From positions 1 to 64,000 of the forward strand of contig CAVXAT010000001.1 of NCBI GenBank assembly GCA_963759805.1: a DNA stretch of 64,000 nt, in the 5' to 3' direction. The notes under the pieces were generated by a model, which did no database searches, was not told the DNA's origin, and worked only from the letters and a program-made list of their open reading frames with translations. The stretch comes from an uncultured bacterium (GTDB lineage Bacteria > Babelota > Babeliae > Babelales > RVW-14). Below, in pieces: positions 1,227 through 22,870 of the stretch; within the stretch, counting starts at the first letter, position 1; each line of letters starts with the position of its first letter. The position numbers and the translations under genes are program-made.

Positions 1227-1414
1227 TTTTTTCTTTCGGGGGTAATACCATTCAAAGTAAGTCTTATGCCCGCATGGTTCGAGCTGTTCTGGTCAAGTAA
1301 AAATGTACAAAAAAAATTAGGCGCGGTTTTTACATTCATTTCATAATCGCAATATTTAAAATTGTAACCAATTGCCTCTATCGCCGGCAGGGCGACTTCA
1401 CCCTACTCTCTTAA

Positions 1415-2251
1415 TTAAACTGGCACAGCACTAACGCTCATTTCATAACGTGCCTCATAATCAACGGGGCTCATGTAATTCAAAGTTGAATGCAGCCGTT
1501 GAGTATTGTAAAACATTTCAATAAAGTCGATTACATCGGACTTAGCCTCAGCTCGAGTTGCATAATTTTTGCCATCGGTTCGCTCTGATTTTAAGGTTCC
1601 AAAAAATCTCTCCATCACAGCATTGTCCCAGCAATTACCTTTTCTGCTCATACTAACAACAGCTTCAGCTCGTTGTAATATTTGTTGATACTGTTGCGAA
1701 GCATACTGAATCCCACGATCAGAATGGTGTAGAATTCCGTTATCTGGCTGGCGACGTATCGTTGCCATGACAAAAGCATTTTCCACAAGGTCTGCACGCA
1801 TGTTATCTGACATTGCCCACCCAACAACACGACGCGAAAAAAGGTCAAGGACAGCGGCAATATACAACCATCCTTCAGCTGTCCATAAATAAGTAATGTC
1901 AGCAACCCATTTGAGGTTAGGGTGTTCAATGTAAAAATTACGATTGAGTAAATTATCTGCAACCATCAATGCATGATCACTTTGGGTTGTCACAGTATAC
2001 CGACGACGTTGTTTGCATGAAATTCCGTTTTGACGCATTAACCGTCGTGCCTTGTATCTTCCAATTTTGTGACCCTGTGCTGATAAAGCCTTTGCCATAC
2101 GTCTGCTTCCGTAACTTCCTCTACTGTTTTTATGTAGCACTTTTAATTCAAACGTCAGTTTTATCTCTCGATCAGTAGTGGATTTATTTTTATTCTGCAA
2201 ATATTGATAATATCCACTTCGTGCCACTTCCATTACCTTACACAGTACCAT
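1415..2251 (-). CDS. IS3 OrfB DDE transposase/integrase core
   Basis: WVADITY, HHSDRGIQY and WDNAVMERFFGTLKSE motifs. The frame stays open upstream to the A7 slippery site at 2326-2332. Confidence 0.95.
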   Translation of the reverse strand: MVLCKVMEVARSGYYQYLQNKNKSTTDREIKLTFELKVLHKNSRGSYGSRRMAKALSAQGHKIGRYKARRLMRQNGISCKQRRRYTVTTQSDHALMVADNLLNRNFYIEHPNLKWVADITYLWTAEGWLYIAAVLDLFSRRVVGWAMSDNMRADLVENAFVMATIRRQPDNGILHHSDRGIQYASQQYQQILQRAEAVVSMSRKGNCWDNAVMERFFGTLKSERTDGKNYATRAEAKSDVIDFIEMFYNTQRLHSTLNYMSPVDYEARYEMSVSAVPV

Positions 2252-2292
2252 TATCGGATAGACCTTCTCTTGCTCATGAATAAATTTGTATC

Positions 2293-2583
2293 TTAAAACT
2301 TTTCGTTGGCAAAGAAGGTCGCCGCTTTTTTTAATATTTCACGCTCCATCTTTAGGCGCTCATTTTCCTTACGTAGGAGCCTAATCTCTTCCTGCTCGGG
2401 CGTTATCGTCGTTATCGTTTTACTAGCTGTTCCATTACCCGCACCTGTTGATTCAGTTATCCATCGATTAACATTTTTACTATTTATCCCAAGCACGGTG
2501 GCAGCCTTGTTTTGACTATATCCTTGCTCTGTGACAAGTTTTACAGCCTCCCTTTTAAATTCCAATGTGTATTTTCTTTTCAT
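2293..2583 (-). CDS. IS3 OrfA (HTH plus leucine zipper)
   Basis: YTLEFKREAV...EIRLLRKENERLKMEREILKKAATFF. Confidence 0.95.
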   Translation of the reverse strand: MKRKYTLEFKREAVKLVTEQGYSQNKAATVLGINSKNVNRWITESTGAGNGTASKTITTITPEQEEIRLLRKENERLKMEREILKKAATFFANEKF

Positions 2584-2831
2584 AGGACACTTTCGTTAAT
2601 GGTTGTTTATCTATCTTACCCCGCCTAACTTTAGTGTCCACTTCTATTAAACCACATCAAGCCGCCTTCGCCAAGGCTTCGACGCCCACGTACGTTTTTT
2701 TTGGCCGCTCGCCCTGAGTGCGCACGCAGTGCGCGTATCGAAGGGTGCGGCCTGCAAAAAACACTCACCACAGCCTGCCCGCCATAGTGATTGTGTTAAA
2801 AGTCAAAACTTTTTTTAAAAATTTTCGAAAA

Positions 2832-3766
2832 TTAAACTTTACATAACTCGCCTCTTTTTAACAGCGAATTGGCAAGAATAATTAGTTTGCGCATAACGGC
2901 AACTATGGCCACTTTGAACGGTTTTTGATTTTTTATCAAGCGATCATAAAAGGCTTTAAGAATTAGGTTATGTTTAATGGTTGTTAATGCGCACATGTAA
3001 ATCTGATTTCTCGGGGTCATCCGTCCTCCCGAATTCTTCTCTTACCCTTGAATTTACCGCTTTCATTGTCATATGGACACACACCAACAAGAGCCGATAT
3101 TTTATTGTTACTTATTGTTCCAAGCTCTGGAACATGTGATAAAAGAAGAGCTGCAGAGGCAATTCCAATTCCAGGTATAGATTCTAAAATCTCAGCTTTT
3201 TGACCAAGTTCGCTATCGTTTTTGAGTAAGCCAGATATTTGCGTATCTACCGTCTTGATTTCTGCGGTAAAAATTTTAATCAAACGTTTAATGCTCGGTA
3301 AACTCATTGCATGTGAAGGTTGCTTTAATCTTGTTTTTTCCGCAGCCAAAAACTTGGTAAGATCGTTTTTACGATTAACGAGAGCTTGCAATTTGGCTTG
3401 ATTCTCAGTTTTTTCAACCGTCGAATAGCCACGCGTATTTTTAGAACAAAATTCAGCAATTTTTCGTGCATCAATTTTATCGTTTTTGCTTTTGCATCCA
3501 GTTGAAACAATAAAACCCCTTATTCGCCTCGGATCAATAATCCAAAGGTTGTAGCCATTCTTTTTTAGCAGCGTTGCAAGCAGCTTTTCATATCCTCCTG
3601 TTGCTTCACATGCTATTTGTGCAATATCTTGCTGGGCTATTTTTTTAATGAAACCCTGTATCGCAGCTTCTGTGTTGTCTATTTTTAAGAGTGTTTTTTC
3701 AGGATAAATGCAAATATCTAAGCTGTTTTTAGAAATATCGACGCCTACATATATATTTGATACCAT
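2832..3766 (-). CDS. IS110 DEDD recombinase, frameshifted near 3025 (ORFs 3017-3808 and 2832-3020)
   Basis: GVDISK, ACEATG, KNDKID, SIPGIG, NESG and AIVAVMRKL motifs. One extra G in cgggagga restores RIRGGRMTPR. Likely start is ATG 3766. Confidence 0.9.
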
Positions 3767-3771
3767 AACGA

Positions 3772-3915
3772 TTACCTCTGGCTTGTAAACATGCGAGATC
3801 GTACCCAATACGTCTCAAGTGATTGTTCGAGGTTGTTTAATGTAAGTTGATAGTCTCAAACTATGGCACGATCCCTTATGATCAGCTCGAGCACGAGATC
3901 TATCAACTTCCTTGA
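3772..3915 (-). ncRNA. Putative IS110 bridge RNA with target- and donor-binding loops
   Basis: Two stem-enclosed internal loops. Guides acaatcact and tacaag match the circle junction, and gccatag matches the right half of the target. Ends are approximate. Confidence 0.8.
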
Positions 3916-4103
3916 ACAATCGATATTAAAAAAAATAACTCTGGAATAAAGTTAATAAAATTCTTATTTATTTAATAGATTTCTAACATACAAGCCATGA
4001 GCGAAGCGAAGGCGACGGCTGGGAGCGGGCAAGTTTGGGTACTTTAATTACGCAGAATGGTATAAAACATATACAACTCAATTTACCAGAAAAATTAGAA
4101 ATA

Positions 4104-4172: not shown

Positions 4173-5849
4173 TTAATCAGCAGTTGCTGCAACTGCTGCA
4201 GATGTTGTGGCGTCCGAAGTTGTTGCACTGATTGTAGAGCCTGTGCTACCTTTAACAAGCGATTTCACTTTACCTATAACAGTGCCAACGGCTTTGTCCA
4301 CGCCCGTGACTTGAGTGCTGCCCAAAAGGTTTTCCACCGAAAGTCCCAACTCCTTGCTGAATGGGGCATAAACTTTGGAGATAAGGTTCTTAATATTAGA
4401 TGGGTCTGCAGCGTTAAGATCTTTTATATTGGCAACCAAAAACTCAGCAGGGGTGAGTGATGTTCCGTCGTCCCAGGTTAATGGATAGAATGGTGCAAAC
4501 GTCTTACGGAATTTAAGAAGAGCGTCGGCTGCAGCGCCGCTAGCTGTTTTTACGCCACTAATGGCCTTTTCGTATGCATCTTTAGCACTTCCCATATCTT
4601 TTGATACCACAACCTCTTTTGCAGCCTTTGCTGCATCTATTATTTTTTTAATCCCTAGTATTGCATCTTTTAAGCTACCTGATGCAGCCTCAATTGCTGA
4701 GGATGGTTTTTCAATTAAAGCATTAAGATCTATCTTAGGGCTAACTGTATATGAAGTTCCATCCAAACGGCGCAATGTTACTTGCCCATCAGCATTTTGC
4801 AGCTCTTGCGCAGCGCGTACTGTATCTTGTAAACCTCTGTAAAAAATGGCTTGCAACATATTTTTGGTAGCTCTGGTTCCGGGTGTGAGCGGTGATTCAA
4901 CATACTTACCATCGTTTTTGAATTTTTTGTAATAGATCTGATAAAAGTTATTGTAAAATATTTTAATTGCGTCAAGAAGTGGCCCTTCCATCATCTCTGA
5001 TTGCTGCATGTCCATAAAGGCTGTTTTTTGTTGATCAAGTGCCGTATCGCTATCATCTGTCAAAGCTTTATACACCTTAACGTTTTTATCATTTAAAACT
5101 TCGACAATTGTCTGATACTGTTGAAGGTACGAATTCAATGCATCCGGTGTTACATCTTCATTTTTTGAAAGAACAAAACGAGAGTACAGTTTTGTTGCCT
5201 CATCAAGCATATACTCAATTCTTGCAAAATCATCATTTGGATACTCTTTGGATGCAGTGTTGTACAACTGTATGAGTTTGACTGTAAATATCAACGAGGC
5301 CGTTGGGTTTAACACCAAAGTGAGTGCATCTTTCGCAGGCCCCTCATCCATTTTTCCTAAAATGTCGGCAGGGGTTAATGCAAAACCGCGCAGATCTTCA
5401 GGCGAGAGAGTGATTATAACCGGTATAAGTGGTAGGCCTAAATCGTTCTGCTCCATGTCCCATCTGATGCTTACTGCGACTTCATTCCCGTCGATTTCTA
5501 CCGTTCCTGCTTCGAATTGAACGGACTTGGCTGTGTAATCAGCATTTTCTTCCAACATCTTTTTTAGATCTTGATCAAAATTTGTGAATAGAGCTACAAC
5601 ATCTCCCAATGTTTTGGCATAATCCGGATCATCCGGATCAGCTTTTGGAGCTGGCGTATTACCTGATGAGTTATCGCCGTCCGGATTATCTCCACCGATT
5701 CCCCAATCCTTTTTGAAATCATTTACAAATTCTGCTGCGGCTTTGCTTACTTGTGATACACTCAATCCGATAAGGCTTGCGAGGACGAGCCCTCCTCCTG
5801 AAAATACTCCAGGGAGACCGACATCCAATCTTTTCTTTTCAAACTCCAT
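4173..5849 (-). CDS. Hypothetical helical protein, possibly the C-terminal part of one frameshifted gene with 5762-6574
   Basis: 558-aa ORF with a hydrophobic segment near the N-terminus. It overlaps the upstream ORF at A-runs. Confidence 0.6.
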   Translation of the reverse strand: MEFEKKRLDVGLPGVFSGGGLVLASLIGLSVSQVSKAAAEFVNDFKKDWGIGGDNPDGDNSSGNTPAPKADPDDPDYAKTLGDVVALFTNFDQDLKKMLEENADYTAKSVQFEAGTVEIDGNEVAVSIRWDMEQNDLGLPLIPVIITLSPEDLRGFALTPADILGKMDEGPAKDALTLVLNPTASLIFTVKLIQLYNTASKEYPNDDFARIEYMLDEATKLYSRFVLSKNEDVTPDALNSYLQQYQTIVEVLNDKNVKVYKALTDDSDTALDQQKTAFMDMQQSEMMEGPLLDAIKIFYNNFYQIYYKKFKNDGKYVESPLTPGTRATKNMLQAIFYRGLQDTVRAAQELQNADGQVTLRRLDGTSYTVSPKIDLNALIEKPSSAIEAASGSLKDAILGIKKIIDAAKAAKEVVVSKDMGSAKDAYEKAISGVKTASGAAADALLKFRKTFAPFYPLTWDDGTSLTPAEFLVANIKDLNAADPSNIKNLISKVYAPFSKELGLSVENLLGSTQVTGVDKAVGTVIGKVKSLVKGSTGSTISATTSDATTSAAVAATAD

Positions 5850-22806: not shown

Positions 22807-22870
22807 TGTCATCCTGAATTTATTTCAGGCCTGCCCGCCATAGCTTTAGCGACGGCTGGGATCCATGGAT
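22807..22870. repeat. Family C palindrome with a family A hairpin inserted
   Basis: gtcatcctgaatttatttcagg [cctgcccgccatagctttagcgacggctggg] atccatggatt. Confidence 0.8.

Follow-up and report, generated by a model that had tools for sequence, protein, structure and literature searches.

The window, i.e., the whole 64,000-nucleotide stretch of DNA analyzed here, carries on its minus strand an insertion that the first-pass annotation described as an IS110 element with a readable bridge RNA apparently aimed at a palindromic repeat family of the host. The locus raises the question of how such an element entered a site that its right target guide matches in full and its left target guide hardly matches. 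Related elements occur in Babeliales/Dependentiae sequences, and the genomes belong to the order of the window; Babeliales are parasites of protists.

Element, copies, and recombinase

The CT cores were located on the minus strand at 3994-3993 (left) and 2787-2786 (right), and the element therefore spans 3994-2786, or 1209 bp including both cores. It has a non-coding left end of 226 nt, a right end of 44 nt, and subterminal inverted repeat halves at 2798-2794 and 3988-3984 (minus strand). The insertion took place at a CT core without terminal inverted repeats, and deleting the element restores the empty site. A long left end, a short right end, and a short subterminal repeat form the layout of the IS110 group as opposed to the IS1111 group. 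Judged by its sequence, the stretch 3994-2786 is an IS110-group element with an IS621-type bridge system, and all motifs named in the first-pass annotation were found where it had placed them on the minus strand. The coordinates of the features are listed in Table 1.

Table 1. Positions of the IS110-group element, its predicted bridge RNA, and the target repeat in the window.
Feature	Position	Strand	Remark
Left CT core (left junction)	3993..3994	-	Sequence; identical junction in 3/3 copies
Right-donor half, short subterminal inverted repeat half, and -10 hexamer (3990-3985)	3984..3992	-	Promoter would arise on end joining
Right end: -35 hexamer (2806-2801), inverted repeat half, left donor, right CT core (2787-2786)	2786..2831	-	
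IS110 recombinase gene	2832..3766	-	Pfam PF01548 and PF02371
Predicted bridge RNA	3775..3980	-	Structured core 3925-3775; 5' end placed from the putative junction promoter
Target-binding loop, closing stem, internal hairpin (3883-3870)	3843..3910	-	
Left target guide, 9 nt	3884..3892	-	Ends in core; homologous to target-matching guides in relatives
Right target guide, 7 nt	3861..3867	-	Full complement of core and right target; 7/7 at 2/2 complete sites
Donor-binding loop	3775..3832	-	Helix 3 (closing stem) with 93.6% of cells paired
Left donor guide	3818..3826	-	Matches the element's right end at 9/9 positions
Right donor guide (3787-3782) and handshake base C (3781) for target position 7	3781..3787	-	
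Target repeat, left half: 5' stem arm and loop, left target 4001-3995	3995..4030	-	
Target repeat, right half: 3' stem arm (right target), then tail	2774..2785	-	
Empty repeat of the same family	22829..22865	-	Among the best guide matches of the genome

Two further copies were found in the window's own genome (G000), at C1:253221-254430 and at C2:1210-1, the latter at a contig end. Both equal the window copy except for one extra G, and the three near-identical copies sit at three separate repeat loci. The right flank of the C2 copy is missing at the contig end, leaving G000 with two complete sites. A search of the three congeneric genomes did not recover the element, and a scan of viral sequences returned distant IS110s only (at most 35% identity), which were left out of the analysis. 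A single-copy IS3-family element (1331-2660, minus strand; orfA 2583-2293, orfB 2251-1415) lies about 130 bp from the IS110 element and adjoins another GC-rich palindrome. An ORF of 558 aa (4173-5849, minus strand) with no Pfam match adjoins the insertion.

The recombinase, whose start is at 3766, carries the DEDD residues D10, E54, D96, and D99 and the catalytic Ser236. These residues align onto IS621, the fold of which has already been solved, and are invariant across 62 aligned homologues (the query and 61 of the 120 homologues among the matches listed, all of them with at least 59% identity). The best solved relatives were ISCro4 (E 1.5e-34) and IS621 (E 6.7e-34). The intact gene encodes 311 aa in the C1 and C2 copies; the window copy is truncated at 249 aa, its G-run at 3030-3028 being one base short relative to the other two copies and the stop lying at 3019-3017. 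The frameshift noted earlier is thus present in the assembly, and the repair suggested for it is unnecessary since two intact natural copies exist. The missing G may reflect a true frameshift or a homopolymer sequencing error: a contig from four DNA sequencing runs spans the frameshift, 358 of its letters covering 357 of the window with a single gap and zero substitutions, yet it is not assignable to the window copy. These runs yielded fragments only, and the joined-end form was not found in them. The window copy would probably be non-autonomous, and the two intact copies could move it in trans.

Bridge RNA and guide-target matching across the clade

In IS621, each loop is laid out as a stem, a 9-nt left guide, an inner hairpin, a right guide, and a handshake base (PMC11208158, partial text). 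The order in the RNA predicted from the window follows the IS621 numbering in both loops, with stems at 3909-3900/3853-3844 and 3816-3809/3803-3795 (minus strand), and the U at 3860, directly following the right target guide, takes the handshake role for donor position 7. The left guides carry the sense of the sequence that they read, and the right guides its complement. The 171-nt region 3930-3760 folds better than 200/200 shuffles (z -3.84). Among 20 aligned relatives, whose kinship inflates these measures, two-sided changes were present in 18/30 named pairs, and 85.7% of cells were paired vs. 32-42% with slid partners. One of the five measures, "further pair types", failed against the shuffles (471/500), and the other four are inflated by kinship. 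The RNA model R1, built from these same sequences, matched 3925-3775 in the window; a search with it for solo bridge RNAs found none, giving three matches in the own genome and, across 151 genomes, matches only beside known elements. A scan of the locus against Rfam returned zero families at the gathering score.

On the joined ends, a -35 and a -10 hexamer are separated by 17 nt, and this consensus pattern was detected in 15/16 elements; the junction is best read as a putative sigma-70 promoter for the bridge RNA. Scanned for promoters in its linear form, the locus gave 7 sites vs. 4.3 +/- 2.6 expected, an uninformative result; the relevant promoter would form only on joined ends. Bases 3832-3829 pair with 3778-3775, by which the donor-loop stem takes in GAGG just 5' of the recombinase start; this pairing is kept in relatives. 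The GAGG is a likely ribosome-binding site of the recombinase, and the stem may couple bridge-RNA folding with recombinase translation.

For the comparison of guides and targets, 37 loci were collected. Loci L061, L021, L027, and L035 were removed (fragment, no left end, incomplete or unparsable), as were L003, L004, and L010 with a missing flank and L020 with a rearranged one, leaving 29 sites of 16 elements. The partial matches L005, L009, L028, and L029 and the distant database and viral IS110s are outside this set. Guides were located via the core, and the right guide was taken to have AG as its last two bases. With the core excluded, left guides matched their own sites at 5.08/7 positions vs. 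1.97 at the sites of other elements, and right guides at 3.83/5 vs. 1.42; none of 100,000 permutations reached the observed match on either side, the kin among the elements not being independent. Donor position 7 is complemented by the base that follows the right target guide in 15/16 elements; for target position 7, the base that follows the right donor guide is complementary at 26/29 sites, and the three misses belong to a single element whose core is TT. Across the sites, no trade-off emerged between mismatches on the left and on the right (Spearman -0.18, p 0.34). At this level of comparison, guides track targets across the clade, and this tracking, together with the handshake bases, implies that the four guides had been correctly read in the first-pass annotation.

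Several of the collected loci have peculiar structures. In L007 (G017), a GC-rich repeat resembling its target family lies inside the element's own right end. At the left junction of L015 (G120), the left tip of the element is directly duplicated (18 nt). L020 (G088) carries the same ~200 bp of flank, duplicated, on either side (~1083-1284 and 2497-2700, element orientation); its right junction lies at an unrelated CT in a ~130-bp tandem repeat, and an intact target is present downstream. In L021 (G085), the right end runs into a donor-like right half (~2593-2606, element orientation) with no left end upstream; its gene contains one stop, and the locus is possibly a permuted or tandem remnant.

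Target repeat and the weak left match

The target is a hairpin repeat composed of the 5' arm GCCGTCGC, a variable loop, the 3' arm GCTATGGC, and the tail GGRCARG. In G000, the family pattern has 108 matches vs. 23 expected, and all three copies of the element are inserted in this repeat. The two reconstructed targets fold at -10.3 and -10.1 kcal/mol. The cut falls at the upper end of the 3' arm, so that the stem takes in position 7, the core, and the right target, and the loop holds the left target. Unfilled twins of the window target are present at C13:6492 (identical over 71 nt on the left and 126 nt on the right), C16:5493 (39/91 nt), and C16:8731 (38/23 nt), and the repeat of the same family at window position 22843 has the same sequence as the third copy's left flank; the proposal that the empty target is a host palindrome like that at 22829 is borne out. 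A tandem array of 69-bp units of the target repeat family occupies C19:8494-9099 of the same genome.

Collection of the other copies with their flanks, as had been advised, gave the two in G000, and the long right guide had rightly been placed against the conserved stem. Within G000, with its three sites, subtype selection is weak when taken singly: the arm subtype ATGGC occurs in 19/73 empty repeats vs. 2/2 known right flanks (p 0.076; p 0.022 for 3/3 if the missing flank of the C2 copy is inferred). In G155, the left target TGGCAAG followed by the ATGGC arm is filled in 4/4 cases and the same left target with another arm in 0/5 (1/126 by hand, the tail of one filled copy falling outside the search pattern for empties). 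In G219, the subtype shared by the right guide and the filled site is found in 1/52 empties. From these filled-versus-empty patterns it follows, as far as sequence comparison goes, that the 7-nt right guide selects the stem subtype. The best guide match in G000 (C8:122118, 11/12) and three good repeat copies are empty and poorer sites are filled, which counts against a pure best-match rule.

The left half of the window target matches its guide only at position 7 and the core, plus one wobble (1/7 Watson-Crick). In register, the second copy matches at 3/7 and the third at 5/7 plus a wobble; left matches at the filled sites of G000 resemble those of empty ones, and only position 7 is constant. 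The near-complete left pairing of most natural bridge-system sites (0-2 mismatches) is thus seen at the third copy and in most relatives, and it is lacking at the window copy and the second copy; 13/16 elements average at least 5/7 on their left targets. At least four left mismatches occur at the window copy, L015, and L019 (same repeat family) and at L038. Left mismatches average 1-4 in the five elements on this repeat family vs. 0-2 in 12 others (Mann-Whitney p 0.009, kin not independent), yet the elements of G155 and G088 are on the same family and their left sides match well. Tolerance of the variable loop side, which the first-pass annotation took for a property of the system, is therefore not a design feature of the clade. 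The partial left match that it described amounts to 1/7 in register and reaches 5/7 only when a 1-nt bulge is allowed. L038 (G155:C6, ~254000-255200) interrupts an integrase-like reading frame, which removal of the element restores; it matches only at position 7, the core, and the right target and is a second natural right-half-only site. The window copy, too, looks like a natural right-half-only insertion.

A repeat variant matching guide positions 3-14 was found in 18/261 Dependentiae genomes (reversed control, 0), and in 10/10 inspected contexts it belonged to this repeat. G000 lacks this variant and is among the 56/261 genomes with the TAAAG loop form. The left guide thus appears to be set for a loop variant that is common elsewhere in the Dependentiae and that G000 does not have, and it was probably tuned in another host or in an earlier state of the present one.

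The poor left match could be only apparent if the guide anchored the GC atop the 5' arm and the G beside the core, with a base looped out in between, so that the sites would be full two-sided matches with an indel. All three filled left targets then reach 5/7, compared with 1, 3, and 5 in register, and several left guides on this repeat family start with GC and end with GCT. The same 5/7 is reached in 8/19 empty sites of the same subtype, and the enrichment is therefore not significant (~0.11 by hand) and does not separate bulged pairing from absent left pairing; G120 and G219 would, moreover, require 2-nt bulges. Bulged pairing is rather unlikely. About equally doubtful is that the weak left match is offset by the hairpin itself, read by the protein or melted locally, as in ISPpu10, which supplies the precedent (10.64898/2026.03.19.712850, partial text). 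All three sites lie in hairpin repeats, the best non-repeat match is empty, and the mismatch excess given above concerns elements on this same repeat, with the same reservation about kin. Nevertheless, the right target lies in the stem here, where the hairpin would compete with the right guide, whereas the ISPpu10 stem involves the left target; selection against insertions in coding DNA alone explains empty non-repeat sites, and L038 is inserted at a non-repeat coding site.

It is considerably less probable that a well-matched insertion lost its left match afterwards through a nested repeat, recombination, or drift in flank or guide. A nested repeat unit within the loop of the window target, the flank rearrangement at L020, and the divergence of left guides between the close relatives L003 and L004, in spite of their shared right guide, agree with such a course. 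However, the twins match both window flanks (71 and 126 nt), and the site hence pre-existed in that form, and the copies differ by one base, being therefore recent and sharing the guide. A right-half insertion, with the left guide fitted to a loop variant that G000 lacks, is the reading preferred here.

Relation to known systems and proposed mechanism

The CT core and REP targets ascribed earlier to IS621 agree with PMC11208160 (partial text), which also describes the junction promoter; the donor sequence quoted with them was not found in the main text of that source. Like IS621 and IS622/ISCro4, the element combines a DEDD RuvC and Ser Tnp protein with a CT core (PMC11208160, PMC11208158, 10.1101/2025.05.14.653916; partial texts), and it shares with IS621/ISCro4 the long left end, the two-loop bridge RNA, 9-nt left guides, handshakes, a junction promoter, a short subterminal repeat, and a REP-type target. 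It differs from IS621 in a distant protein (E 7e-34), another donor and target, the host phylum Dependentiae, and a predicted RNA that is more compact and in which a 5' stem-loop is at most putative. Its native right target guide pairs over 7 nt, that of IS621 over 4, and natural sites here include some with just 1-3 of 7 left matches. The "new specificity" attributed to the element holds insofar as its own targets differ; in a programmable family, each member would be expected to have one.

Orthologues with naturally long right guides are known, insertions within the target have been described as tolerated, and IS621 itself tolerates mismatches poorly in screens (PMC11208160, partial text). 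In ISPpu10 of Pseudomonas putida, likewise an IS110 element aimed at a REP hairpin, the left guide is distally tolerant, the right guide is strict, and the hairpin helps (10.64898/2026.03.19.712850, partial text). The ISPpu10 stem uses the left target; in the present repeat, the 3' stem arm consists of the core and right target, and the left target makes up the variable loop. Tolerance appears to extend to position 6 here, a position at which ISPpu10 is intolerant. For IS621, one half-site, including the right target only, suffices in vitro, and right-target-only events could not be scored in vivo because its right guide is 4 nt long (10.64898/2026.08.31.748434, partial text). With the 7-nt right guide, natural right-half-only events become readable, as in the window copy and L038. 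REP targeting, 7-nt right guides, left tolerance, and half-match insertion are all already in print (Durrant 2024 and two preprints of 2026). The searched parts of the PMC11208160 supplements contained no Dependentiae name and no match to the scaffold or target, and a literature search, with subscription papers mostly outside its scope, found no IS110 bridge study in Babeliales.

Other REP-targeting IS elements, such as ISPpu9, reportedly share the insertion of IS110-family elements in dispersed palindromes. Compared with REP-targeting IS elements in general, the repeat family and the phylum are different here.

Taken as a whole, the element is very probably of the IS621 type, with a junction-driven bridge RNA, targeting of the stem arm, and right-half insertion at this locus. 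Joining of the ends at the CT core would create the donor and a sigma-70 promoter driving the bridge RNA of the left end, as in IS621. The donor loop would read the element's own junction; the target loop would read the upper end of the 3' stem arm in a hairpin repeat widespread among Dependentiae. Strands would be swapped at CT by a tetramer of the recombinase, assisted by the handshake pairs at position 7, again by analogy with IS621. Because the loop variant of the left guide is absent from G000, the element would enter any loop variant that has the right stem. Insertion in the window would then have relied on right-half and position-7 pairing, a half-match possibly with a 1-nt left bulge. 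The three coexisting copies are consistent with copy-out, which has been argued for IS110 elements (10.1101/2025.10.25.684509; 10.64898/2026.08.31.748434; partial texts).

The mechanism being known, the element itself is ordinary. What the clade offers is a natural series of 16 flanked elements with one scaffold, a nearly fixed donor, and many targets, which allows a simple test of how much left pairing a 7-nt right guide can spare. It also provides readable natural right-half-only insertions, a class unscorable for IS621 in the half-match preprint, and intact orthologues for genome-editing screens. A more tentative and rather less likely suggestion is that guides are retargeted among phylum-wide repeat subtypes, the 7-nt right guide and the position-7 handshake being enough in vivo to let members aimed at the stem-loop junction colonize hosts whose repeats lack the loop that suits their left guide. 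If true, right-half-only insertion would count as a natural host-range strategy and would begin the reprogramming of guides, rather than being a mere off-target error.
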